This document shows positions 8,970 to 28,416 of a stretch of 31,611 bases of DNA, in pieces. Numbering within the stretch: the first letter of the stretch is position 1; every line of letters starts with the position of its first letter. Under the pieces are notes generated by a model. That model saw nothing but the letters and a program-made list of their open reading frames with translations. It searched no databases and was not told the origin of the DNA. This DNA comes from a virus (taxonomy: Duplodnaviria > Caudoviricetes). Both the position numbers and the translations under genes were made by a program. The DNA lies in IMG/VR virus record IMGVR_UViG_3300031519_011018, positions 1 through 31,611 of that record; one strand, written 5' to 3'.

Positions 8970-9611
8970 TTAATTATTTATCATTCTGTCTATTACTCGT
9001 TCTACTATCCATTTAATAATATATGGTAATAATAGATTTATGAGTAAAATAGCTATGATAGAGCCGCTCACTTCTGACTTCATTTGCTGCTTAGTGAACT
9101 TATAACACTCTTTTTTCAGCTTTCTGACGTCGCTGCTGGATGCACCAGCAAAATCAGTGCCGCCTTCTAGTGCCAGTGTAGTCCAAGCCTGAGCATATTG
9201 CAAAGCCTTCTCTGCTAATCTACGAGACTCTTCGTCTTCAAAATTAGCATCTATCTCATAATGAAGACTTGTGTCAGGAGATAGTATTTCGTACTGGCTG
9301 GAGAGCGGTGGTGCCCCAAAGACTTTAGTGTCATCGTCTATGTTAAAGTTGATGTCTGGAAAATTCTTTAGTTTAATTGTGCCTGAGCCATCTACGTCTA
9401 CATACACTTCTTCCAACTCTACTGAGAAAGTAATAATCTTTACAACACTTAGAGTTGGCCTATTCTGATTAAAAACTAATTGAACTGGTCCCTGTCCAGA
9501 GTAGAGCATAGCATTTAAAGGTGCTACACACTTAACGTTATATCCCTTAACGTCTAAGCCATTTTTTTGAAAAGCCTTATTAATTTGGCTTGTTATTTCC
9601 AGTACGTCCAT
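8970..9611 (-). CDS. Hypothetical protein with C-terminal membrane anchor
   Basis: GSIIAILLINLLLPYIIKWIV at the C-terminus. Confidence 0.7.
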   Translation of the reverse strand: MDVLEITSQINKAFQKNGLDVKGYNVKCVAPLNAMLYSGQGPVQLVFNQNRPTLSVVKIITFSVELEEVYVDVDGSGTIKLKNFPDINFNIDDDTKVFGAPPLSSQYEILSPDTSLHYEIDANFEDEESRRLAEKALQYAQAWTTLALEGGTDFAGASSSDVRKLKKECYKFTKQQMKSEVSGSIIAILLINLLLPYIIKWIVERVIDRMINN

Positions 9612-9642
9612 TGTTATTGTATTCCCTTGAGCAAATTGTTTA

Positions 9643-10101
9643 TTAATTAACGAGTGACCACGCCAAGCCAGAGAATAAATTACTTAGTCCTGTTTTTTCT
9701 TTTGAACTAAGCATATGCTCGGTGTTTCCTGTGACGTTAAAAATTTCTGAAGTTAGTCCTTCGTCAAATCCTTCGTACTTTCCTTCTAGTCTACCCTTAA
9801 ACACAAGGGTCGCTGAATGTACAATGAGATCATTCACCTGTTGTAGGGTAATGGTATCATAACTTTCAATCCTACTTGATAGCTCCAAAAAGTATAGAGC
9901 TATTTCAAGTTGGTCTTCTTCGTTGTCCACTGACGAGGAAACAGGCTCGACAACTACTTTGATCGCTTCCGATGGCTCAGTAATAGAAATGCTAGGCACT
10001 TCTGGTTCTGGCTTAGGGGTTGGCGAATCTAGCAAATCGAAAATCCCATTACCAAACACTCCATATGAAATTAGGAGGATAGCAATAATGTTCTTAATCA
10101 T
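9643..10101 (-). CDS. Signal-anchored/secreted protein with Pro-rich linker
   Basis: MIKNIIAILLISYGVFG, then PTPKPEPEVP, then a helical domain. Confidence 0.7.
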   Translation of the reverse strand: MIKNIIAILLISYGVFGNGIFDLLDSPTPKPEPEVPSISITEPSEAIKVVVEPVSSSVDNEEDQLEIALYFLELSSRIESYDTITLQQVNDLIVHSATLVFKGRLEGKYEGFDEGLTSEIFNVTGNTEHMLSSKEKTGLSNLFSGLAWSLVN

Positions 10102-10456
10102 TTGTTGTTACCTCCACTACTTTCTTTACTACTTCAACTTTTTCGTCAACTGTCCGGTCATTTAATAATGGGAACACGCCATCGATAGCTGAAACTGCTT
10201 TTGGTAAACCGTAATCTGCACACTCTGTGCGGAGTTGGTGCCAAAGATCAATAATATGTAAGAATTGTTCCTCTTCTGTAACTACTGGCTCCACCACAAC
10301 TGGTTTGTTAGGATTAACAGGTGTAGGTGTAGGTGTAGGCTTTTTAATAAACGATAGTAGTCTTCCGACTACGCCTGTCACATCTCCGTATGATGACACT
10401 AAAATCAATACGCCAACGGCGATTGCTCCAATTCGTAACATTGTTTCTGTTTCCAT
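10094..10456 (-). CDS. Membrane protein with N-terminal TM helix and Pro/Thr linker
   Basis: IGAIAVGVLILV followed by KPTPTPTPVNPNKP. Confidence 0.7.
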   Translation of the reverse strand: METETMLRIGAIAVGVLILVSSYGDVTGVVGRLLSFIKKPTPTPTPVNPNKPVVVEPVVTEEEQFLHIIDLWHQLRTECADYGLPKAVSAIDGVFPLLNDRTVDEKVEVVKKVVEVTTND

Positions 10457-10815
10457 TACTTATCATTCCTTTCGTATAATAGTTCACCATCGACTATTAG
10501 TTCATTTGGTGTTGTTGATTGGCCTTTGCCGTGATACGGACAGGGTGTTGTGTGACCATCACCGTGAGTGATTATTCCAGTACCCTTGCATATACATTTT
10601 GAGACATCTGGATTTGGTCCATCTGGCACAATGACATCGGGGTTCTTTTTGAGTATCGCCATTTCAGAAAGATCGAAAGCTTCCGAAATAACAATTTGCA
10701 TTTGTTCTACGCTAGCACCGTGCATGTCCAAGACATCTGTTACGACAGGTTCTTGTTTAGCACATCCAGCAATAGAAACGCATAGCAAAGCTCCGAAAAC
10801 TACTAAGTTACGCAT
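10456..10815 (-). CDS. Lipoprotein with Cys/His motif
   Basis: Lipobox IAGC at residue 18; C-terminal CICKGTGIITHGDGHTTPCPYH. Confidence 0.75.
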   Translation of the reverse strand: MRNLVVFGALLCVSIAGCAKQEPVVTDVLDMHGASVEQMQIVISEAFDLSEMAILKKNPDVIVPDGPNPDVSKCICKGTGIITHGDGHTTPCPYHGKGQSTTPNELIVDGELLYERNDK

Positions 10816-10848
10816 ATTATTCTCCAGTTAATAAAGTTTTCCTATACT

Positions 10849-10854
10849 ATTATA
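10849..10854 (-). promoter_or_regulatory. -10 element (TATAAT) upstream of the lipoprotein gene
   Basis: GGATATAATAG in an intergenic gap; no good -35 seen. Confidence 0.45.
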
Positions 10855-10892
10855 TCCATATGTACGACAAAAGACATATAAAAATATTCTAT

Positions 10893-11006
10893 TTAAGTAA
10901 GTGAGTATGTAGTTACTCCAGTATTATCTATAACACGTTTTCTGGTATAGCCATCAGTGTCTGTGACTATTTCAGCCTTGAGTGTTGCCGGAGTTGGGTC
11001 AGGCAA
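10893..11006 (-). CDS. Possible 37-aa small protein (not in the ORF track)
   Basis: TTG start gives MPDPTPATLKAEIVTDTDGYTRKRVIDNTGVTTYSLT. It fills the gap between genes. The frame is open further upstream, so the start is uncertain. Confidence 0.45.
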   Translation of the reverse strand: MPDPTPATLKAEIVTDTDGYTRKRVIDNTGVTTYSLT

Positions 11007-11076
11007 TATCCATAAGTCTGCATCTTCTGGACTAACATTATAATTTATGTTTATTGATACGGATTAACTTATGATA

Positions 11077-11292
11077 TTATGGATTGCCACCGTCTACGCT
11101 TGGTCCATTAAATCGTGCTGTCAATCGAGCCTCTTGTGCAAAATAATCAACAGCTTTAACTCTATCAGTTAATGGCTCTGGATTGTATGTATGCACTGTA
11201 CCCGCACTGAAAACTACACAACTGCCTGAAATACCACTTTCAATATCGGCATTTGCATTAGTCATTACGTCTGTAGTAGATACTTTTGCCAT
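11077..11292 (-). CDS. Small virion-like protein
   Basis: AGGAG RBS; MA- start; Ser/Thr/Gly-rich; N-terminus resembles 11328..11525. Confidence 0.65.
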   Translation of the reverse strand: MAKVSTTDVMTNANADIESGISGSCVVFSAGTVHTYNPEPLTDRVKAVDYFAQEARLTARFNGPSVDGGNP

Positions 11293-11327
11293 GTTAAAAA
11301 TTCTCCTGTAAAAATTCTAGTAAAAAG

Positions 11328-11525
11328 TTATGAGTCTGTCCTATTCTGAAATCTTTTCCCGTATTTATCTTCAAGTTTAATATAATTTATAGATACTAAT
11401 GTTGTATCAATAGTTTGCGTGGATGAAAAATAGTTTCCTCCTGTAGCTACTGTCACGGCACCGCCACCTGAAGACTTTAGTGAGGCACTTGCACTGGTTA
11501 TAATATCCACTGTAGATGTAGCCAT
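11328..11525 (-). CDS. Small virion-like protein
   Basis: GGAGG RBS; N-terminus MATSTVDIITSASASLKSSGGG. Confidence 0.65.
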   Translation of the reverse strand: MATSTVDIITSASASLKSSGGGAVTVATGGNYFSSTQTIDTTLVSINYIKLEDKYGKRFQNRTDS

Positions 11526-11529
11526 GTAT

Positions 11530-12138
11530 TTATACCTCCCTCAGTAGTAGTGTATATAAAACGCTTATTAATCGCCATAAAGCAAAAATTGCTACGAACA
11601 CCATAGTGATGTTCATCTTGGTGTGCAACCTTCCCTCCGCTTCCTTGGCTCGTTTCTCCTCTAGCTTATCTACTGCCTGCATAGCAAACAGGTGATCTTC
11701 AATCTGCTGGACTACTTCTCTAATGTCGGAGTCTTCATGTTCATTAAGTAATCCATGCTGAAGCATACCCATGGGTTTTACTCTAATGATATACCCATTA
11801 ATTATTTCAAGATATCCATGAGACCTAGGATCAATTCTTAATTCATTCTGCTTTTTGTCTAGTTCTCTTTGGATGTAATTAGTAGTTAATACTGTATGAT
11901 GGGCATCCGTTTCTTGCTTTGGGCTATCAATAAACCTTTCATCTATTGCTGTTTTAATAAGGTCATCGATTCTAAGCTTAACTATGTCGCTGCTAACTTC
12001 CGTAGCAACAAACTCTTCCATCTGTTTCAATGGAACAGCTTCCGACTCTTCGGTAGCACGTCTATTAAGTTTAATTGACGCTACATCATAGACAGAATTA
12101 TTATTCATGTCCAATCCGTTATAAATTTTCTTTCTCAT
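11530..12138 (-). CDS. Protein with fibre/adhesin-like N-terminal motifs and C-terminal TM helix
   Basis: LDMNNNSVYDVA...EAVPLKQM and LDKKQNEL motifs; C-terminal ITMVFVAIFALWRLISVLYTLLL. Confidence 0.6.
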   Translation of the reverse strand: MRKKIYNGLDMNNNSVYDVASIKLNRRATEESEAVPLKQMEEFVATEVSSDIVKLRIDDLIKTAIDERFIDSPKQETDAHHTVLTTNYIQRELDKKQNELRIDPRSHGYLEIINGYIIRVKPMGMLQHGLLNEHEDSDIREVVQQIEDHLFAMQAVDKLEEKRAKEAEGRLHTKMNITMVFVAIFALWRLISVLYTLLLREV

Positions 12139-12160
12139 TGAACCCCTCCCAAGCAGTGAA

Positions 12161-13081
12161 TCAAAATACTTTATTCAAATTGAATTCAACTTTTCTAGAT
12201 GGAAATCCATCTACATCACTAAACGCCCAAGAACCATTTCCCGATAGCATTCCCCGTGCGTCTTTTTCTCTAATCCAGAATGATCCATCAGGTTGATCAA
12301 AACGTTTAGGCCCACTGTTAAATACGCCCCAAGAATTTTGAACTAAGAACAAAGTTTCATCGTAGACTTCACGTGAGTCGTCCATCGCCACCCATGCCAT
12401 TGCGTGATTCCAGCCCCCGCTACGACGGGCTATCCCATGTTTGTCTCGACGTGAGGAAAATCCATAACCGCTACAGACACTTAAAGCATACCCATTCGCA
12501 ATTGCGTCACGGGCTTCGTCTATCGTCTTGACCAGACTGATAGTAGTGACTTGATGCTTCTTGCCTTCGTTTTTTACGTCTGTGGGTACGCCACCTCGGC
12601 CCCATCGTGATCCAGTGGAACTGTTGTACTTGGTGAAATCAACAAACCCATAATCTTTTCTCAATAAGATGCCACCATTTTGATGGACAAATCGTGCTGC
12701 ACCAGAACAAGACATCCCTTGTCCGCCATGTCCACGTGATCCGTAGATAGCTTCTGTTGCACTTCTTGTCTGCCAGCTTTCTGCTTCGCCACCAATGATT
12801 TCATGCACTCTAGTAACATCAACAGCGTTACGTGTAGAATGCGAGACACAATCTCCCGTGGTTTGTTTTTCGTGATATCCAAATGTTGGATCAACTTTTT
12901 GTATACCTTTATAAAGTAATACTGTTTTACCTTCTCCAGTGCCGTAAAGATCGTATGCTGCTGCACCAAATAATGGATGTGGCAACTCTCCGAGCAACTT
13001 GTCTGTGTCCTCTGGATCACACCATGCTCCCATTAATCCGTCTTTGTAAGCGTTGAGAATATCCCTTGGCGTTGTGAACAT
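12161..13081 (-). CDS. Papain-like (clan CA, C1-like) cysteine peptidase
   Basis: QTTGDCVSH (oxyanion Q and catalytic C), NHAM (His), QNSWG (Asn), GSFW. No signal peptide. Confidence 0.88.
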   Translation of the reverse strand: MFTTPRDILNAYKDGLMGAWCDPEDTDKLLGELPHPLFGAAAYDLYGTGEGKTVLLYKGIQKVDPTFGYHEKQTTGDCVSHSTRNAVDVTRVHEIIGGEAESWQTRSATEAIYGSRGHGGQGMSCSGAARFVHQNGGILLRKDYGFVDFTKYNSSTGSRWGRGGVPTDVKNEGKKHQVTTISLVKTIDEARDAIANGYALSVCSGYGFSSRRDKHGIARRSGGWNHAMAWVAMDDSREVYDETLFLVQNSWGVFNSGPKRFDQPDGSFWIREKDARGMLSGNGSWAFSDVDGFPSRKVEFNLNKVF

Positions 13082-13183
13082 ATTAAACTCCTATTTCCTA
13101 TTATTAAATAATGTGCGGGTATGGATAGGGTTTTTGTATATACCAGACCCTAAACTGGTGGATTATCCTTACTCTTTTTTACT

Positions 13184-13420
13184 TTACTCTTCGACTTCGA
13201 TTACTTCAACTTTGTCTTTCTTGTTATCATTGATCCACTGGATGGCTGAATTCAAAGCCACTGTGACAATTGGAACAAGAAGTAGACCCATATTACCAAG
13301 ATCAAGACCGGCAAGGTTCTCACCGACGTAAGTAAGTGCTGCTGCACTACCTACTAACAGTGCGTTGAATGCTAAAGTCTTAACGTCGTCTTTGTCTAAA
13401 TTAAATCGTGCTGATGCCAT
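13184..13420 (-). CDS. Holin-like small membrane protein
   Basis: 78 aa, two hydrophobic segments and a charged C-terminal tail; lies directly upstream of the peptidase. Confidence 0.6.
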   Translation of the reverse strand: MASARFNLDKDDVKTLAFNALLVGSAAALTYVGENLAGLDLGNMGLLLVPIVTVALNSAIQWINDNKKDKVEVIEVEE

Positions 13421-13430
13421 TGTTAGTACC

Positions 13431-14039
13431 TCAATTTGTAGTTAGTAAAATGCTCATTAAAAATCCATCGTTCTGATCGTCGGATATTCTCAGGGGATGG
13501 CCCTGCATCCTGATTGGACGTCCATTGCTTAATCTCGTCTGTCTAACGAAAGTGCGATTCATGTCCAAACAAGACTTAAATTGATCTAGGGTTTCTTGCT
13601 GATCATTTTCTTTTAATAGAGAAATCCAGTCAAATCCTTTGATTAGACTAGTGTTCAGCGAATCTACTGTTTCTAAATCATAAAACATATTGTTACCCCA
13701 TATCAATTTACCACTTTTGTCAGTCTCAAACATAGCAATATCAGCATAATTCAATGCTGCTTTGCAACGTTCTTTGATGACTCGTTGACTAATTTGGACA
13801 TCGACAAGGTTTTGTCTTATTGTCTTGACGGTATCCTTAATAGTCCTACCTCCATGTGCTGTTATTTCGTCTTGTAATTCTTTAATTGCTTCCATTGCTG
13901 CTTCTTGACGTTTCAATAAATTAGTTAAAGGTTTTACAACTTTGATCCAAAACCATCCGGCCAAGGGAATTAATACTCCCGTTACTACTGTGCCAGTGAT
14001 AGTGATCAGTTCTTCTAAATATTTCAAATCAAAATTCAC
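13431..14039 (-). CDS. Membrane-anchored PAS-domain protein
   Basis: TM helix, then a coiled coil with ITAHGGRTIKDTV, then a PAS pattern: IAMFETDKSGKLIWGNNMF...GFDWISLL..NDQQET...F...RL. Start placed at GTG 14039 after AGGAGG. Confidence 0.8.
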   Translation of the reverse strand: MNFDLKYLEELITITGTVVTGVLIPLAGWFWIKVVKPLTNLLKRQEAAMEAIKELQDEITAHGGRTIKDTVKTIRQNLVDVQISQRVIKERCKAALNYADIAMFETDKSGKLIWGNNMFYDLETVDSLNTSLIKGFDWISLLKENDQQETLDQFKSCLDMNRTFVRQTRLSNGRPIRMQGHPLRISDDQNDGFLMSILLTTN

Positions 14040-14062
14040 TGATTTCCTCCTCACTGAATTGT

Positions 14063-14115
14063 AGGCTTAGGAGCCTGACGCCAAGCCCATCCACGAAGAG
14101 ATGAGCCTGACGCCA
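14063..14115 (-). promoter_or_regulatory. Tandem RNA hairpins / 13-bp direct repeat upstream of the PAS gene
   Basis: 15-bp stem (14100-14114 with 14077-14091, four G-U pairs) plus a 5-bp hairpin at 14063-14076. GAGCCTGACGCCA occurs at 14071 and 14103. Confidence 0.6.
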
Positions 14116-14137
14116 CGAATCCACTTGACACATACTG

Positions 14138-14632
14138 CTATTCTGCCGAGTCCTGAGCTTTATAGGCATTCGTTACTGGCTTTTTGCCACCAGCCATGAA
14201 TACCAATTCGCCGGGAACTGCACGCGAAGGAGTAGCCGCCTCGTCGTTACCAAAATCAACTAAGTTTCCAGCTGCATCTCTTGTGCTACTGAGTTCGTTG
14301 ATGCCGTCAAAGCTGTCGGAATTGTAGTTCCCACCTACAGATAACACTGATGACGATACGCCATTGATGTTCTCTGCGTTTGGTCCTGCCATTGCCAACA
14401 AGAAATCTGCACCTTTAGCGGGAGTGAATGCAAATGTGCCACTAGTATTAGCTTTTACTACTTTGGCTGCATCTTCAATCATTTTTGATCCCGTAACTGG
14501 ATTTCCCATGGCTACGTCAGCAACAGACAATGCTTTAGTAACGGGGCTGTCTGGGCCTTTACCGTTTGCTTTTATGAGCGATCCGCCATCGTTGACAACT
14601 GGGCTACCGCTTACTGGCTTAGAAACTGCCAT
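14138..14632 (-). CDS. Probable virion structural protein
   Basis: MA- start, Gly/Ala/Ser/Asn-rich, GAGGT RBS, own promoter and 3' hairpin. Confidence 0.6.
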   Translation of the reverse strand: MAVSKPVSGSPVVNDGGSLIKANGKGPDSPVTKALSVADVAMGNPVTGSKMIEDAAKVVKANTSGTFAFTPAKGADFLLAMAGPNAENINGVSSSVLSVGGNYNSDSFDGINELSSTRDAAGNLVDFGNDEAATPSRAVPGELVFMAGGKKPVTNAYKAQDSAE

Positions 14633-14705
14633 AATATATACCTCATTTTAAAAAACTTTATGTTAGACCTATATTGTCCTTGTAAAGTTCCTGTTGTCCT
14701 ACTCT

Positions 14706-14714
14706 ATTATACAC
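14706..14714 (-). promoter_or_regulatory. GTGTATAAT promoter motif lacking a -35
   Basis: Same 9-mer at 19898-19906 and 30938-30946; variant at 6668-6676. Confidence 0.55.
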
Positions 14715-14797: not shown

Positions 14798-15286
14798 TCA
14801 GAGATATCTACGTTCAATGACTCTAGACATCCTTTTAATTTTCTTCCGTACAGTCTCACGGCTGACTGAGCGAGAGGCAGATATCTCAGATATGGTGGCT
14901 CCTGCCGCACGTTCCCTGAGCATCTCTGGATCAGATGAATGATTTATCTCATCTTGTAGGTCTACCATCTCAAAATCGCCTCTGTCAGATTCTGCCAAAT
15001 TATTATGCATCATCTGTCGCGTATATCTGGTGTGCCGCTTTTGGAACTTGGAAGCCTTGACGCATTCGATAAATACGCCTTTAAACAAATACGTAGTAAA
15101 CTTGACGTTAAATTCTGGCTTAAAAGTCTCTAGCGAGTGCCACAATCCGTGCAGTTTACAGATTTCTAGGGAGTCTTCATCTAGAGTCTGGCGGAACTGA
15201 CGGGTGGCTTTTTGCATTACCATCTGGTAATCTCGGTTGCCTAGTGCTAATTCGATCTGGGTATTCATTGCTTTGCTGTTCATCAT
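14798..15286 (-). CDS. Phage-encoded short sigma70-family factor
   Basis: Region 2-like GLWHSLETFKPEFNVKFTTYL; region 4 HTH TISEISASRSVSRETVRKKIKR. Confidence 0.85.
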   Translation of the reverse strand: MMNSKAMNTQIELALGNRDYQMVMQKATRQFRQTLDEDSLEICKLHGLWHSLETFKPEFNVKFTTYLFKGVFIECVKASKFQKRHTRYTRQMMHNNLAESDRGDFEMVDLQDEINHSSDPEMLRERAAGATISEISASRSVSRETVRKKIKRMSRVIERRYL

Positions 15287-20744: not shown

Positions 20745-21620
20745 TTATGCTGTTGCGTACTGTTTCTTCCGCTTGAGGAGGGAGTTAACTCGCTCAATCT
20801 TAGCACCAACCTCTTCAACCCATTCTTTATTACGTTTCTGGGTATTGATATAGTCCAGATCGGTTCTGTTCATGTGAACAACCGAGGTGTAAACATCTTC
20901 AAACTCAGAAACAACTTCGTACCGACACGCTCGTAGTTTTTGACATCGAACATCGTTAGGTACACTAATCACATCTGCCGGATTTACTTTGCAGATCATC
21001 AAGCGATTGCTGCCGCCTTCGTCATCGTCACCGCTATCGCCATCGATGCCGCCATACTGTTTGGCATAGTCGATGGCACCGACATGCAAACCAGCAGAAC
21101 AATGTTTTTCTCTATTGCTGTCTACTGCTGCTCTCGGCATCTCACATACGCTACCGACACTGTTGTCAATCTTGCCTGTGTAAATATCAGTGTAGTCAGA
21201 CTTCACTGCTTTGTATGCCAAGAAACAACCATCGGCAGTGATAGGCATTTGCTTGTGACCCATGAAATCAAACAACTCAACGATAGCATTGTCAGATGGA
21301 TTGTCCGACATGTTATCTAAAAAGTTAAGCATTGGCTCAAATGGAAAACCTTGATCCATCATGTTAAGCATCGTGTCCGTAAACATCTCTGGCATGGCGT
21401 TGCCATCCCAAGACAACTGACCATTTTCAACTCCGATGTATCCTTCGCTAAAATCTTGAACAGCTGAGACAACATCATAGGCAGCCTCAAAAAATTCATT
21501 CTGCCCATTCTCAAGATAATGAACCAGTTTCTTATATCGTGGATGAGCCTTGCCAAAACTATATGTTGCTCCTCCGATAGTCGCAATCGCATTGCCGTCA
21601 TGTCCAATTAAATACTTCAT
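20745..21620 (-). CDS. rIIB: RIIB-like protein
   Basis: FLDNMSDNPS, PITADGCFLAYKAV, CSAGLHVG, KVNPADVISVP, KLRACRYEVV. Start placed at ATG 21620 after AGGAG. Confidence 0.9.
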   Translation of the reverse strand: MKYLIGHDGNAIATIGGATYSFGKAHPRYKKLVHYLENGQNEFFEAAYDVVSAVQDFSEGYIGVENGQLSWDGNAMPEMFTDTMLNMMDQGFPFEPMLNFLDNMSDNPSDNAIVELFDFMGHKQMPITADGCFLAYKAVKSDYTDIYTGKIDNSVGSVCEMPRAAVDSNREKHCSAGLHVGAIDYAKQYGGIDGDSGDDDEGGSNRLMICKVNPADVISVPNDVRCQKLRACRYEVVSEFEDVYTSVVHMNRTDLDYINTQKRNKEWVEEVGAKIERVNSLLKRKKQYATA

Positions 21621-21656
21621 ACTAAAACTCCTATTGTTAATCGTTACCATCTATAT

Positions 21657-21685
21657 ATTATATCCTTAAGCTACTACTTTGTCAA
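21657..21685 (-). promoter_or_regulatory. sigma70-type promoter for rIIB inside the rIIA 3' end
   Basis: TTGACA-17 bp-TATAAT, perfect consensus. Confidence 0.85.
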
Positions 21686-23744
21686 CTTCTTTTTTGAGAT
21701 AATCCAAAACTATCGCTTTGTCGTCCGCATGGCGGAACCATCGTGGAGCAAACTTGAGCATAGGTGCTGACTTATCAAGCATCTCGTCCAATTCTACCCT
21801 TGGCTTGCCGTAGTTGGTGGGCCAGCCACCGCGTGATCCTAGAAACGGTCGGAATATTGACTGTAGGTCAGTGAACTCCTCGATCTTCGTTGGATTGGTT
21901 TCGGTTGCTTTGAGTGCGTTGGCGATCTCACCGATCTCGCCTGTTGGCTCCCAATTCACATCCTGCATCAGTTCCAGAACTCTACTTGATTCTTGAAAGT
22001 CTTTAGCGTCGAGCATAACCGAAATGTTCTCACCCATTTCTTGCACCAGCGTCTTTGCAGAACTTGTGTAGTCATGGATGCGTGTCCAGTTTGGATTGGT
22101 GTCGATCTTACGTTGGCGACATTTGCTTGCGGTCACAAAGTATACTGTTTGATCTTCGCCAATAATGTCGTGATCGTACAATGCCTTAAGAATCTTCTTG
22201 ACTCCGTAAGCACCACGCTTAGTCACTCCACATCCCATGTCAAAGATTTCTTTGTTCTTGAGGATATAGATGCAATCAGTTTCCTTACGCATGTCGATGC
22301 GACGACTCTGGATGTCTTCAGACTCTACGTCATAGTAATCAACTTCCGTCTGTCCTGCTCGACCACCACCCGATGAAGCACGTGTGACCTTTGGTAGATC
22401 AGATGTTTTAATGAATCTGTCGTATGGCATGTCACCCATATCTGATTGAAACTGAGACAATACATTATCTCCTACTACGATGAACGTTTCTGTATCGTAG
22501 CCATACTCTTGCTTCAAGCCTTTTAAGTATGCTGCTAATCGACCCATGCCACCCTTGCAGTCAAAGTGTACAAACTTTGTGCTTGTTTTTAGATTGACAT
22601 AGCTGACTATCTTGGTCTTACTTTCACCTCTCCATCGACTGTTGGTCTTTTTCTTGACTTCGCAATCTAGTTCAACCTGATTACTAATGAACCTGTCGAA
22701 CAACGTCCGGTGTTTCCAAGTTACGGTATCAAGTTGTGAGATGATAGTGTCGATTGAACTGCACTGTTCGCATAGCTTGAGGTATGTTTCTCGTGCTTCG
22801 AACAGCGTATCACAGTTGGTGATCTTGTCTTGGATCAACTCTTCGATGTCGGTCATAACTTGTTTGACTAAGCTAGTGATCTTATCCTTAGTAGCTTGAT
22901 TCATAGATAGACTCTCTCGACTGGGAGTAATGTCTACATCTCCGATGTCAACATGAAGTGTGAGGCCTTCGGAATCGTCAAGAAACTTTACTACTTCGCT
23001 ATCATCAAGATCGCTAGACGTGAAACTGTATGCAATCTGTCCCATGACAACTCGTTTAGTGTAGCTGGTGTCAAATTCCCACCCCTCGCCTTTAAGCACT
23101 ACATCTGCTTTATTGTCGATGATCAATTCATCTTCAGGGACGTTTAAAAATCTTGGTGCCACATTAAAGTGTTGGTATATATTACTCATTTCATGCTTGA
23201 ATTTGCCAAGGTCTGAAACATTGACGTTAAGTTTAACTTCCATGCCGTCAGGTTCTTGGGTGTCCGTTGTGTCAAGCAATGCAAATGATGGTGTGCCATC
23301 AGTTCCTTTGTGTGCTGCGTAAACACGCTGTGTGCCATTCTGATACGCAATGACAGTGAATGCATCAGAGTATGAGAATGGAGATTTGCTACCCAAACCA
23401 AGGCAACCAACTGAGTCGTTACTATTATTCTTGGTAGACCGAAAGTACGTAGTGTATAAGGTCATGCATTCTTCGTGGGTCATGCCATTGCCATAGTCAC
23501 GAATAGAAAATTCTGGAGTAAAACGAGATGGAACATGCACGTCGAACATTAGCTTAGGCGTACCTGCCTCAACGTGAGCATCGTATGCATTGGTAGATAG
23601 TTCTCGCACTACCGCTTTAATCTTGTTGGAATACAAACCGTCAGACAAAATCATAAACGCTTTGGCTGATGCTTCAATAGAAAAGTTGTTCTCTTCAAAT
23701 TCCCCGGACTTTACTACGTTCTTTTGAGCTTGGTGAAGTTTCAA
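21666..23744 (-). CDS. rIIA: RIIA-like protein (N-terminal GHKL ATPase fold)
   Basis: LYSNKIKAVVRELSTNAYDAH, IRDYGNGM, STK, GCLGLGSKSPFSY, PSRESLS. Confidence 0.92.
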   Translation of the reverse strand: MKLHQAQKNVVKSGEFEENNFSIEASAKAFMILSDGLYSNKIKAVVRELSTNAYDAHVEAGTPKLMFDVHVPSRFTPEFSIRDYGNGMTHEECMTLYTTYFRSTKNNSNDSVGCLGLGSKSPFSYSDAFTVIAYQNGTQRVYAAHKGTDGTPSFALLDTTDTQEPDGMEVKLNVNVSDLGKFKHEMSNIYQHFNVAPRFLNVPEDELIIDNKADVVLKGEGWEFDTSYTKRVVMGQIAYSFTSSDLDDSEVVKFLDDSEGLTLHVDIGDVDITPSRESLSMNQATKDKITSLVKQVMTDIEELIQDKITNCDTLFEARETYLKLCEQCSSIDTIISQLDTVTWKHRTLFDRFISNQVELDCEVKKKTNSRWRGESKTKIVSYVNLKTSTKFVHFDCKGGMGRLAAYLKGLKQEYGYDTETFIVVGDNVLSQFQSDMGDMPYDRFIKTSDLPKVTRASSGGGRAGQTEVDYYDVESEDIQSRRIDMRKETDCIYILKNKEIFDMGCGVTKRGAYGVKKILKALYDHDIIGEDQTVYFVTASKCRQRKIDTNPNWTRIHDYTSSAKTLVQEMGENISVMLDAKDFQESSRVLELMQDVNWEPTGEIGEIANALKATETNPTKIEEFTDLQSIFRPFLGSRGGWPTNYGKPRVELDEMLDKSAPMLKFAPRWFRHADDKAIVLDYLKKEVDKVVA

Positions 23745-24200: not shown

Positions 24201-25028
24201 TTATTCTGTATATAACAGTGCTTTATTAATTTCTCTCGTCAATTTATAAAAATTAGTTAGTTGATCAGCAGTTTTAATTATCCAGTCTCTGTACACTGAT
24301 ATCCTAGTGGAGCCTGAATAACAGTGATACCCTCCGTTTAACATATTCTTACTGCCATTATTCTTGACATTTGTAGTAATGACTGAATGAATTCCTGCTA
24401 ACTTGCCATCAACAAACATGCCGCCTCCACTGTCCCCCGGCGAGACTATGCATTCTAGACTGGTGTTTGTTTTGCTAGTCGATCTACTAGGAGATACCAT
24501 TAGCATGTCTCTATCTGTTCCCTCTATGATATTCGATCCAGCTAACCTGATTTTTTTAGTGTGCGATTGATGACCAGATTTAAATGAACCACTTCTACCC
24601 CATCCTGCTATGCTACATACTTTTCCCACTTCGTCTTTGTTTTCGTATAGCTTGACATAAAATTCTAGAGGTATTTCTTTCTCTACATAACATACTGCTA
24701 TGTCTCCGAACCCATATTTCTTTTGAGTGTATGATGATGGACATACCGCAGCTTTTATTGGATATGACTTCGCTCCGATCACTACTCTGCTATCTTCTAC
24801 GTCGGCCATTACGTGTGCCGCAGTAACTACGATGTGCGGAGATATTACTACTCCAGAAGCACATGTGTTGTACTTAGTGTCTCTCACTATAGCACATATC
24901 CTCACTACGCAACTGTGCTTAGAGCCGTATGTTTGATATTTGGTTTTAGATACATCACCTCTATACGTTATAGCCAATGACACATTGGTCATAAGTACTA
25001 AGAGTGTCAACGCTTTGATAGTGTTCAT
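24201..25028 (-). CDS. Secreted trypsin-like (S1) serine protease
   Basis: Signal peptide ending VSLA; catalytic triad motifs TAAH, GDIA, GDSGG. Confidence 0.92.
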   Translation of the reverse strand: MNTIKALTLLVLMTNVSLAITYRGDVSKTKYQTYGSKHSCVVRICAIVRDTKYNTCASGVVISPHIVVTAAHVMADVEDSRVVIGAKSYPIKAAVCPSSYTQKKYGFGDIAVCYVEKEIPLEFYVKLYENKDEVGKVCSIAGWGRSGSFKSGHQSHTKKIRLAGSNIIEGTDRDMLMVSPSRSTSKTNTSLECIVSPGDSGGGMFVDGKLAGIHSVITTNVKNNGSKNMLNGGYHCYSGSTRISVYRDWIIKTADQLTNFYKLTREINKALLYTE

Positions 25029-25029
25029 C

Positions 25030-25398
25030 TCAGTCCTCCAGTCTCCTTAGTTCTTCTTCTAGTTTATTAAAATTTGTGTGGTTCAGTACGCTATATCTTC
25101 TTTGATTGGTGTTGTGGGTGTGTTCCATGTGGCAGTTGTGACACATTACCTTACATTTTTTAATTTCATCTAATAATTCATCTACAGAATACTTTGCTGA
25201 GTACAATCTGTACATTCCACCGGCTTGAGTTCGTTTTGCACCACCGTTCTTCGTTATGTCCGACTTCTCATACTCTGGCTGATGGTCAAAGCACAACGCG
25301 GAAGGATGTTTATTGTACCCGCATATGTGGCAACCGACAGTGAGTTTATAATGATCTACCAACTCATGTCTGGCTAGTTTAATCTTTTTTTTGTTCAT
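25030..25398 (-). CDS. HNH endonuclease-like protein
   Basis: CHICG...FDH...EIKKCKVMCHNCH. Start placed at ATG 25398. Confidence 0.75.
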   Translation of the reverse strand: MNKKKIKLARHELVDHYKLTVGCHICGYNKHPSALCFDHQPEYEKSDITKNGGAKRTQAGGMYRLYSAKYSVDELLDEIKKCKVMCHNCHMEHTHNTNQRRYSVLNHTNFNKLEEELRRLED

Positions 25399-25798
25399 TA
25401 GCGTACTTTTTGATGAGAGTTTCAGCATTGCCGCTATTTCCCCGTGCTACTTCTTTGCCATCAATAAAAACTATAATAGTTGGTACACCCCTGAATTTAT
25501 ATTTTCTGGCATACTTGCTAAAGTTTGAATCGCTGCTACAATCAGCTATAGTGAGATACTTGAATAGATTCTTACTTTTGAGTCTTGACTTCAGCCTTTG
25601 GCAGGGACCACACCACGTGGCAGTGAACATGGTAATGACAGGTTTTGGCTTAGGTTTCTTTTTAGGAGGCTCTGGCTTTGGGGGAGGCTCTGGCTTTGCG
25701 GGTTCAGGATGTATGACATCCATCTCACAAGGAAATGAGTGACACACACTCGACCATGTTGCGAGGAGTATGGCTTTTAAAAATGTTATACGTTTCAT
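25379..25798 (-). CDS. Exported thioredoxin-like protein with Pro-rich linker
   Basis: Leader MKRITFLKAILLA; PEPAKPEPPPKPEPP linker; WCGPC; GVPT cis-Pro loop. Confidence 0.88.
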   Translation of the reverse strand: MKRITFLKAILLATWSSVCHSFPCEMDVIHPEPAKPEPPPKPEPPKKKPKPKPVITMFTATWCGPCQRLKSRLKSKNLFKYLTIADCSSDSNFSKYARKYKFRGVPTIIVFIDGKEVARGNSGNAETLIKKYANEQKKD

Positions 25799-26092: not shown

Positions 26093-26506
26093 TTATCTTC
26101 GTCTAAACCATGGAGTCCTAGACTTATAGTTATATGTCCTTTTTGGGGTGCCTTGACCGCCCTCATTACCAAGGGGTAAATAACCATTGTGGACATTGTT
26201 ATGTATCTTCTTCAGTTCATCTTGAGAGAACTTAGATAAGTCTAGATCAACTTTGTGAAATTCTTTCAGATGTTTTTCCATGTATTGCCTAGAAGGATTC
26301 CATTTACCATTGAAATTCCATCGTGTACCCGGCATCTTATATACAGTACACTTGGATTCTTCTGGTTTAATTTCTTCTAGTTTATCATCGCCGTCGTCAT
26401 ACTGTAGATTCCATTTAAACGGAAATGCCATTACTGGTGTGCATACAGCTTTAACAAACGCCCCAAGCGTTAAAATCGTTAAAAATGCTTTTCTGCTTAG
26501 TTTCAT
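26093..26506 (-). CDS. Exported protein with Tat-like leader and four-His motif
   Basis: SRKAFL plus hydrophobic stretch plus VMA; HLKEFH...ELKKIHNNVH. Confidence 0.7.
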   Translation of the reverse strand: MKLSRKAFLTILTLGAFVKAVCTPVMAFPFKWNLQYDDGDDKLEEIKPEESKCTVYKMPGTRWNFNGKWNPSRQYMEKHLKEFHKVDLDLSKFSQDELKKIHNNVHNGYLPLGNEGGQGTPKRTYNYKSRTPWFRRR

Positions 26507-28416
26507 TATTCCACCGTTACGCTCTTTGCTAGGTTTCTAGGTTGATCAACGTTATTACCTAATATAAGTGCTGTCTCGTAAGCTAGTATCTGTGTCACTA
26601 CGCCATTTATAATAGGTGATAAGTATTTATTGGATTGTGGTACTAATATCTGTATACCTTTAAAATGTTCTTGTTCTTTATCTGTTATTAATACAACTGG
26701 ACCACCTCTGGATTGTATCTCAAATATATTATTACGCAACTTATCTGATTGATCATCATTATTCCATATTGCAACTGTTGGCGTTTGTTCGTCTATCAGT
26801 GCCAGTGGTCCGTGTTTCAATTCAGCTGCTGAATATCCCTCGGCGTGGATGTATGCTAACTCTTTAAGTTTTAATGCTCCCTCTTTAGCAATAGGATAAT
26901 TGTATCCACGTCCGATGAAGATGCAGCTATCAGCTTTCGAGATGGCCCATGCTGCTTCTTTGATCTTGTTTCTAATCTTCTTGGTGTTGATTATTTTGTC
27001 CACCTTCTTTGGTAGCTTGGCTATCTCTTCTGGAAGTTCTTGCCACCAGCCAAGATTTCTATCATCGTCCCAGCTATTGCTCTTTCTGCACTGCTTCTCG
27101 TTGAGCCAAACAGCCAGCATAAGAAGTGTAATAACTTGATTGGTGAACGTCTTGGTGGATGCTACGCCAACCTCTATGCCAGCACGAGTGTAGATGCCTT
27201 TCCAAGTATCATTAGCTAGTGTTGAACCAACATTATTAACAATGCCGAGACTATTCCAGTTACCATTATCTTTAATGTGATTGTGAGCCTCTAATACGTC
27301 AGCTGTTTCACCAGACTGAGAAATCAGAATATACATTTCTTTGTTCTCTTTTAAGACTAGTGGGTTTCTATAACGAAACTCTGCCGCCTGCTCCGATACA
27401 GTTTTGATGTGTCCTATCTCTTCGATGTATCTTTGACCAAGCTCCGCTGCGTGTAGACTGCTACCGCATCCTAAGATGTTAATGAAGTCTGGAAGATTAT
27501 TGTGCCTGCTTAAAGACTTATCTAAGCCACCTAAGCTAATTGCGTTATCGTGTATTCTACCTCTTAAAAGATTTTCTATGCATCGTGGCTGTTCGTGAAT
27601 TTCTTTTTCCATGAATGTGTCGAAGTCGCCCTTGTTTGGTGTCTCATGCTCATAGCTAGCACGTCGAATGGGGTCTTCGAGGCCGTCCATGTCTTCAGGA
27701 GTATCGCCGAGCTTTACTACTGTTCCACTGTAAGATATATGGCAACCATGAGCCTTGGTGATGCCGGGTGTTCTCTCTCCATTAGTAAAGCATAAACCGT
27801 ATGAGTATGCATAGAACCCATCGTACTCGCCGTTGTAGTCATCGTCATCTTTGTTTGGCTTCTCTACACAGAACCAATTTAATGCTACACCTCTCTGTAT
27901 GGCATAGAAATCATTATCTTTTCTTGTATCTAAAACGATAGCCGCAATACCACCACGTGTAACCATGAGTGCTTGCTTAATTGCTTGATCTAAAGTGGTA
28001 TGTCTTTTCCTAGCGAAGTGTGAAATCACATTTATAAATACTTCTGTGTCCGTTTCGCTTTGCAGTGAAATATTCCGACAGTACTCATCTCGTAGTTCTT
28101 CGAAATTTTCTATGATGCCATTGCATACTATGGCGTATCGACCCGTAGAATCGAAGTGTGGGTGAGAATTTTCTTCTGTTGCCTTACCGTGAGTAGCCCA
28201 TCGTGTGTGACCAATAAAGGCTTTTACTGGCTCATCTTCTACATTCATGGACATCATCAGTTTATCAACGTTGCCTTTGGACTTGTGCGTTACTACTTGA
28301 CCGCTTTCCGTAATGGCGATGAAACCAGAACTATCATAACCTCTGTACTCAAGTGCTTTGAGTGCCAGTACGTTACCGTAAACTGTTCCGCGATTTGTTG
28401 CGATGATTCCGCACAT
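26506..28416 (-). CDS. glmS: Glutamine-fructose-6-phosphate aminotransferase
   Basis: MCGI, EYRGYDS, GHTRWATHG, NGIIEN, SQSGETAD, ASTK, EGALKLKE, ELKHGP, PRNLAKSVTVE. Confidence 0.97.
   Translation of the reverse strand: MCGIIATNRGTVYGNVLALKALEYRGYDSSGFIAITESGQVVTHKSKGNVDKLMMSMNVEDEPVKAFIGHTRWATHGKATEENSHPHFDSTGRYAIVCNGIIENFEELRDEYCRNISLQSETDTEVFINVISHFARKRHTTLDQAIKQALMVTRGGIAAIVLDTRKDNDFYAIQRGVALNWFCVEKPNKDDDDYNGEYDGFYAYSYGLCFTNGERTPGITKAHGCHISYSGTVVKLGDTPEDMDGLEDPIRRASYEHETPNKGDFDTFMEKEIHEQPRCIENLLRGRIHDNAISLGGLDKSLSRHNNLPDFINILGCGSSLHAAELGQRYIEEIGHIKTVSEQAAEFRYRNPLVLKENKEMYILISQSGETADVLEAHNHIKDNGNWNSLGIVNNVGSTLANDTWKGIYTRAGIEVGVASTKTFTNQVITLLMLAVWLNEKQCRKSNSWDDDRNLGWWQELPEEIAKLPKKVDKIINTKKIRNKIKEAAWAISKADSCIFIGRGYNYPIAKEGALKLKELAYIHAEGYSAAELKHGPLALIDEQTPTVAIWNNDDQSDKLRNNIFEIQSRGGPVVLITDKEQEHFKGIQILVPQSNKYLSPIINGVVTQILAYETALILGNNVDQPRNLAKSVTVE

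Follow-up and report, generated by a model that had tools for sequence, protein, structure and literature searches.

The window analyzed here, 31,611 nucleotides of the Caudoviricetes record IMGVR_UViG_3300031519_011018, represents a fragment (31.6 kb) of a large phage. Its minus strand carries genes for RecA, PhoH, NrdAB, rIIA/B, a glycosyltransferase, and GlmS. On the same strand lies a block of 11 open reading frames (ORFs) that includes a gene for a papain-family cysteine protease (Table 1). The original prediction for this block was a planctomycete-phage lysis cassette with the protease in the endolysin position, a PAS sensor as its gate, and spanin-like membrane proteins. All 11 ORFs are present in the predicted order, and a Kyte-Doolittle scan of them returned the predicted hydrophobic segments. 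None of the 11 matched a Pfam family at the curated cut-off, and the sole PHROG match, that of the rare C-terminally anchored protein, was weak and concerned a family without a function. A lysozyme or amidase, said to be lacking in the block, was likewise not found among the 55 window ORFs scanned against Pfam and PHROG. We consider the observation confirmed and its interpretation partly supported.

Table 1. Genes and features of the block, in the direction of transcription (aa, amino acids; TM, transmembrane)
Feature	Coordinates	Strand	Remarks
Promoter-like motif GTGTATAAT, then spaced GGA triplets	14670..14714	-	Heads the operon
Gly/Ala/Thr-rich soluble protein	14138..14632	-	No hydrophobic segment; no family match
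Single-TM, coiled-coil PAS protein	13431..14039	-	Hydrophobic segment at residues 11-27
Two-TM holin-like protein, 78 aa	13184..13420	-	Two hydrophobic segments; candidate holin
Papain-family (C1A, xylellain-like) cysteine protease, 306 aa	12161..13081	-	No signal peptide, no hydrophobic segment
C-terminally anchored rare protein	11530..12138	-	One C-terminal hydrophobic segment; cargo slot
Two small soluble proteins, 65 and 71 aa	11077..11525 (11328-11525, 11077-11292)	-	No hydrophobic segments
Cys-rich exported protein	10456..10815	-	One N-terminal hydrophobic segment, lipobox; CxCxGxGxxxxGDGHxTxCPxH motif
Single-TM Pro-linker protein, 120 aa	10094..10456	-	One N-terminal hydrophobic segment
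Membrane-anchored five-helix protein, 152 aa	9643..10101	-	One N-terminal hydrophobic segment, then Pro linker
C-terminally anchored protein, 213 aa	8970..9611	-	One C-terminal hydrophobic segment

Residues Q73, C78, H226, and N249-S250-W251-G252 of the protease are invariant in all 40 aligned sequences, none of which contains a hydrophobic segment. With its AlphaFold model (predicted local distance difference test [pLDDT] score of 80.8), the best Foldseek match was xylellain (3ois; E value of 2.5e-10, TM-score of 0.52, 19% identity), followed by cathepsins and their zymogens; there were 249 matches at an E value of ≤0.001, and the top rows were all C1A. The papain call is thus borne out, and according to the model the protein is a C1A peptidase with a papain fold and not a CHAP or NlpC/P60 domain. 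Approximately 70 residues precede the catalytic motif, an N-terminal extension that presumably acts as a prosegment. Relatives are numerous, with 1752 at an E value of ≤0.001 and, for a wider profile, 2260 clusters (50% identity), of which 1236 reach ≤1e-30. Distant homologues match Pfam Peptidase_C1 below or just above the cut-off, one of them with a weak C39_2 match beside the C1 match. PDB sequence searches with the protease and its alignment gave no match, and the annotated phage genomes held none for the protease, the window PAS protein, or two holin-like proteins; two other queries gave chance matches only. Among 32 long homologues, thioredoxin is fused to the protease in three. As a side observation, seven of the 32 carry intein or LAGLIDADG domains (P0248, P0251, P0252, P0254, P0309, P0313, and P0316), and many other homologues, of ~680 residues, match in two stretches.

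The 152-residue membrane-anchored protein is predicted to dock onto this protease. Its model (pLDDT of 93) consists of a TM helix, a proline linker, and five helices, and co-folding with the protease gave a score of 0.83, compared to 0.00 for the best of three controls. Of 157 solved complexes, 116 attained this mark, as did 2 of 215 mismatched pairs; these counts are rough, being based on our own alignments. Runs of the complex agree in at least 71% of contacts, with a partner pLDDT of at least 86. The predicted interface mainly involves the last 12 residues of the protease (295 to 306) and partner residues 86 to 129. Since C78 and H226 are not among the contacts listed for the predicted complex, the partner reads as a tether rather than an inhibitor, and the models support its binding to the C-terminal tail of the protease. 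The partner fold had no Foldseek match at an E value of ≤0.001 in PDB or BFVD and was blank in the Atlas; its best VIA matches (Z of 7.0) are Cas11/Cmr5-like bundles (root mean square deviation of 3.3 to 3.6 Å over 96 to 99 residues), which is within the helical-bundle background. The 38 loci that share one protease tail type fall into a single branch in the partner tree and into two in the protease tree, and given that an approximately unbiased test (22 of 63 rows) did not reject a single clade for that tail type (P = 0.198), we do not claim co-evolution of tail and partner. In one prophage locus (L125), the partner has a lipoprotein form. It is likely exported and periplasmic, so that the signal-less protease must cross the inner membrane, a job that a holin would do.

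We pooled 169 protease loci, the window included, of which 103 were left after removal of those at least 95% identical; the 59 with at least 1.5 kb upstream and at least 3 kb downstream of the protease were kept. Genes within -2.6 to +4.2 kb were counted as near the protease. The Cys-rich, 152-residue, and 120-residue genes, here called the downstream trio, are near it in 42, 41, and 40 of the 59 loci, respectively. Loci that miss the trio belong mostly to the window's subclade; in those of sufficient length, the trio lies at +5 to +9 kb. In line with the original prediction, the neighborhood is therefore conserved in relatives, with clustering far beyond chance. The window-type two-TM gene is near the protease in 34 of the 59 non-redundant loci and an unrelated 58-residue two-TM gene in 22; homology between the two families was tested and none was found. 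Exactly one of them is near the protease in 56 of 59 loci, never both, and three loci have neither in range. Size, two TM segments, and position fit a candidate holin in these 56 loci, and the two-TM protein may fill that role. Directly after the protease, the three genes at 11077-12138, which had been counted in the system, are not members of it and occupy a variable cargo slot that relatives of the window's subclade fill with genes of 1000 to 1650 codons. The C-terminally anchored protein of this slot has only six homologues, and its N terminus resembles a long fibre-like ORF in another locus (L147; E value of 5e-9). The 65- and 71-residue proteins are paralogous (mutual phmmer E value of ~0.01), and their family is near the protease in 7 of 59 loci, all in one subclade.

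The promoter-like motif that heads the operon is found in 40 of 41 non-redundant regions upstream of the first gene, before the protease in 0 of 60, and before ten other families in 0 to 7 of 14 to 51. In the 167-kb relative G001, which is rated 100% complete, 8 of 15 near-start copies precede plus-strand genes of the morphogenesis region. The GTGTATA motif with GGA repeats precedes morphogenesis-region genes in all three large relatives (G001 to G003). It is found before nrd genes as well and so is not restricted to late genes; late expression in the window's clade is plausible. Within the window, the GTGTATA motif recurs before several genes (at 14714, 19906, 30946, and 6676, minus strand). 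A sigma-like gene (14798-15286) lies directly upstream of the module, and its product may read this motif. Scans for sigma-70 promoters and terminators stayed near chance (24 versus 16.8 and 5 versus 4.0, respectively). The first gene had been called virion-like, a label that no database match backs; the sole link is its position behind a promoter motif that morphogenesis genes also have. Present in 51 of 81 loci and conserved in both phage clades, with homologues 4 to 6 kb from the protease in other clades, it lies outside the protease core.

Protease genes are also frequent in genomes of one planctomycete class. In G200's class (Planctomycetota), the wide profile detected the family in 130 of 401 genomes, compared with 2 of 381 in that of G008 (Bacteroidota), one of these two being G008's own module-bearing contig. 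Twenty copies on long contigs were sampled across the score range, and 78 of their 108 long neighbors were scanned. A terminase gene lies downstream of eight copies and a portal gene downstream of one; two copies are among head and tail genes, two near integrases, four in a host locus without the partner, and three unassigned. The family is thus enriched in the planctomycete class and often located just before the terminase in prophages, which agrees with the phage type first proposed. In G200 and G367, the protease gene immediately precedes terminase, portal, and capsid genes, with an anchored helical or PKD-Pro-helix gene before it and a thioredoxin-like gene after it; in G393, it lies, as read from the sequence, between replication-like and head genes. 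A planctomycete chromosome (G280) carries in a row a homologue of the window two-TM gene (E value of 9e-11), a TM gene, a lipoprotein-form partner, and the protease, the two-TM homologue being three genes upstream of the last. A 77-residue two-TM gene upstream in G367 looked holin-like, but no family match confirmed it. The partner is encoded directly upstream of the protease in seven prophage loci (L123, L125, L126, and L373 to L376), and a partner-like neighbor accompanies 8 of the 20 sampled copies, four of them via a weakly linked PKD-helix profile only. PKD-Pro-helix proteins upstream of some prophage proteases match the partner weakly (E value of 0.22) and may be homologous to it. An N-terminal hydrophobic stretch is present in 11 of the 20 sampled proteases and points to an extracytoplasmic target.

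These positions also bear on whether the protease could serve virion assembly or entry, as a maturation or virion-borne enzyme with the membrane proteins as scaffolds. The two copies among head and tail genes, the fibre-like genes inserted directly after the protease, and the promoter motif common to morphogenesis genes would fit such a role, but several prophages encode separate head proteases of the S49/Clp type, G001 has a Clp-type protease of its own, and the N-terminal anchor in 11 of 20 copies together with an exported partner fits the envelope better than the capsid. We therefore regard a virion function as rather improbable.

No host marker was found in the window. A planctomycete host is suggested by the prophage homologues and by the DUF1501 genes of relatives, a family that we take to be planctomycete enriched. 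G001 (L083-L084) contains three DUF1501 genes along with many glycosyl-, sulfo-, and methyltransferase genes. Contigs of the phage group (L106, L107, L108, L109, L111, and L128) have been binned into SAR202, Flavobacteriales, Asgard, and Dehalococcoidia metagenome-assembled genomes, and these binnings are likely contamination.

Canonical lysis genes were then sought in the three relatives of 135 to 167 kb, and the family scans found none. In G001, no endolysin, holin, or spanin family was detected among the 148 longest of 241 ORFs searched on Pfam and 95 ORFs on PHROGs, rIIB being the only lysis-class match. For G002 and G003, no endolysin was matched by the 114 ORFs scanned, out of 259 of at least 100 residues of which 142 have G001 homologues and the three longest were left out; the ORF caller can miss genes at stretch borders. 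The prophage ORFs scanned in G200 and G367 likewise included no endolysin family, and no known muralytic family appeared in the block, the window, or the scanned ORFs of G001 to G003 (Pfam and PHROG). Since Pfam and PHROG miss the protease too, the absence of an endolysin in relatives is weak evidence alone. Lysis might then be due to an unrecognised gene and the module might instead remodel the host envelope, for instance by receptor shedding, superinfection exclusion, or destruction of periplasmic defences. The many unannotated ORFs and surface-glycan enzymes of these phages, the lack of wall-binding fusions of the protease, and the solo host copies (4 of 20 planctomycete loci and G578) would be compatible with this. 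Yet the protease lies just before the terminase in unrelated prophages, a holin-like gene accompanies it in 56 of 59 loci, and the small prophages scanned offer no other lysis candidate, which makes remodelling unlikely in our view.

On balance, we lean towards reading the block as a planctomycete-phage lysis module whose papain-type protease takes the endolysin role and docks, as predicted, onto a dedicated partner. In the window's clade, the operon would start, probably late, at the promoter motif common to morphogenesis genes. The protease would be made without a signal peptide and, by comparison with the xylellain and procathepsin matches, be kept latent behind its 70-residue extension. 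The two-TM protein would open the inner membrane as a holin; many prophage proteases instead come with an N-terminal anchor of their own. Once in the periplasm, the protease would attach through its C-terminal 12 residues to the anchored five-helix protein, at a distance from its active site, and this binding would hold the enzyme at the envelope. The Cys-rich protein and an exported thioredoxin, both known from fusions, could keep the catalytic cysteine reduced. The protease would then cut a load-bearing envelope component, of which a protein or tether rather than glycan is the candidate. The PAS protein, an optional addition in one clade only, may tune the timing.

Several findings weigh against the lysis module. 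The block lies among replication genes in the large phages, and in the clade without PAS no clear promoter motif precedes the protease. Neither two-TM family has a holin family match, a peptidoglycan-binding domain occurs in 0 of 32 long protease homologues, and the charge rule supports an outward topology of the partner by only 17 versus 8 of 33. As most ORFs are matchless and Pfam and PHROG miss even the protease, a divergent endolysin could be hidden. In the genome survey, phylum-level protease counts were 6 of 401 and 2 of 401, the former clashing with the 130 of 401 at class level, near kin of G200 make up three of the eight terminase-linked copies, and two copies lie among head and tail genes. 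The protease also works outside phages, as indicated by solo host copies. A signal-less one resides in a conserved host locus between dehydrogenase and Ser/Thr kinase genes (L378, L379, L382, and L384), where no partner gene was matched, and another in the chromosome of G578 (phylum of G008; L145:18299-19234), flanked by genes that read as short-chain dehydrogenase-like and agmatine deiminase-like.

The PAS protein likely starts with the GTG at 14039, behind GAGGAGG, where its Atlas entry also begins. The Atlas links it at 0.99 to a viral cluster of which 31% of the members have PAS, and weak PAS-family Pfam matches (E values of 2e-4 to 0.06) were obtained for 6 of 7 homologues scanned; on these profile matches, the PAS domain call holds. 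Lys or Arg follows the TM segment in 16 of 18 sequences and precedes it in none, so the C-terminal domain is likely cytoplasmic. No output domain was recognised in it. Of the 59 loci, 33 have the PAS gene near the protease, always along with the window-type two-TM gene, and the other 26 lack it there. The gene is absent from G003, which is 88% complete, has no match in any prophage locus examined, and is dispensable in one clade. A TM-coiled-coil gene that replaces it was tested for homology to it, and none was found. In an unrelated 173-kb phage (L268), a TM-PAS homologue lies beside ribonucleotide reductase with no protease within 2.5 kb. As an add-on of one clade, the PAS protein cannot be a general gate; we consider it an optional accessory, for which gating is unsupported and tuning of lysis timing may be proposed.

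The N-terminal half of the PAS protein shares a motif and phrog_1009 matches with abundant 65-residue single-TM proteins, whose search was built on that motif. These small proteins (L227 to L347) carry ExxxNGGxS[LIM]KD, and an estimated ~3400 stretches encode them. Among 30 neighbors chosen by hand from 37 of their loci, endolysin families were found in four loci and a holin family in one; seven neighbors match phrog_32486, an unnamed candidate endolysin. This kinship loosely ties the PAS gene to lysis regions. The complete model first put forward, i.e., a holin gated by PAS, a protease as endolysin, and a two-component spanin, can point to these PAS-less relatives flanking holins and endolysins and to the 33 of 59 loci in which the PAS gene adjoins the holin-like and protease genes. 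The lack of PAS from the other clade and all prophage loci examined and the TM-PAS homologue of the 173-kb phage speak against its gate. The spanin analogy fares no better: a lipobox occurs in only 2 of 42 homologues of the Cys-rich protein, the 120-residue TM protein faces the cytoplasm according to the positive-inside rule in 38 of 41, and the 152-residue protein, for which binding to the protease is predicted, forms a compact helical bundle. We thus give the complete model very little credence.

Regarding the remaining genes, the Cys-rich protein is a lipoprotein in the window and usually signal- or TM-anchored in its homologues; it is not an o-spanin. Three of 42 homologues are thioredoxin fusions, and in five loci (L053, L060, L108, L109, and L111) the protein is fused to the 152-residue partner family; we infer that thioredoxin and Cys-rich proteins keep the catalytic cysteine reduced. 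The domain of the 120-residue protein, with Lys or Arg after its TM segment in the same 38 of 41 sequences, is likely cytoplasmic. The 213-residue protein is subclade specific (7 of 59 loci near the protease); its homology to a TM gene of other clades (f23) was tested, and none was found. Some 11 kb upstream of the module, at 24201-25798 on the minus strand, the window encodes a trypsin-like protease with a signal-like N terminus and an exported Pro-linker thioredoxin, which may represent a second envelope protease and its redox partner. G002 and G003 also encode trypsin-like proteins. The rIIA/rIIB-like pair of the window lies at 20745-23744 and its GlmS-like gene at 26506-28416, both on the minus strand.

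The established view is that tailed phages require an endolysin that cuts peptidoglycan. That phages and prophages of a whole planctomycete class exit without a peptidoglycan hydrolase, through a papain protease that is either holin-released or self-anchored, caught at its tail by a periplasmic adaptor outside known families, activated by a phage thioredoxin system, cutting protein tethers of the envelope, and timed by a cytoplasmic PAS protein in one phage clade, is possible and is offered here as a tentative proposal. If true, a large protease family in the lysis slot of planctomycete prophages would constitute a different way out of the cell, and the protease substrate would reveal a load-bearing part of the planctomycete envelope, a long-standing question. 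As a third of the genomes sampled from one class carry copies, cultured lysogens offer a way to test the idea, and specific mutants can be derived from the predicted tail-adaptor interface.

A description of the module was not found in the literature searched, in which coverage of subscription journals and bioRxiv supplements was limited. Xylellain-type peptidases have been acquired by Myoviridae and Siphoviridae, and the accessible part of that report states no role for the phage enzymes (PMC10380794). Xylellain of Xylella fastidiosa (PDB 3OIS) and short bacterial C1A peptidases resemble the window protease in their papain fold, Gln/Cys/His/Asn residues, N-terminal extension, and absence of a signal peptide, whereas the window protease adds a predicted partner-docking tail and a conserved neighborhood of membrane genes. 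Endolysin domains of the CHAP, NlpC/P60, and C39-like types also use Cys-His catalysis on a papain-like core in lysis; the window protease shares this chemistry but matches none of these families, its top Foldseek rows all being C1A. The T domain of the T4 holin is periplasmic and GAF-like, and T and the antiholin RI control lysis. Like them, the PAS protein has one TM segment and a small fold of the sensor type and is encoded near putative lysis genes, but its domain is likely cytoplasmic, unlike that of T, and it is absent from one clade. The S-R-Rz/Rz1 holin-endolysin-spanin cassette of lambda lies upstream of the terminase. The module shares with such cassettes a small two-TM gene followed by a signal-less hydrolase and membrane or exported genes, the pre-terminase slot in prophages, and the existence of both cytoplasmic and anchored enzyme forms. 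It differs in that its enzyme is a C1A peptidase and not a glycosidase, amidase, or known peptidoglycan peptidase, and in having a dedicated anchored partner and thioredoxin links in place of a spanin pair. The module stands outside the canonical cassette and spanin families, and our favored interpretation, held with modest confidence, is that it functions in the manner of a holin-endolysin cassette whose enzyme is a C1A protease with a docking partner.

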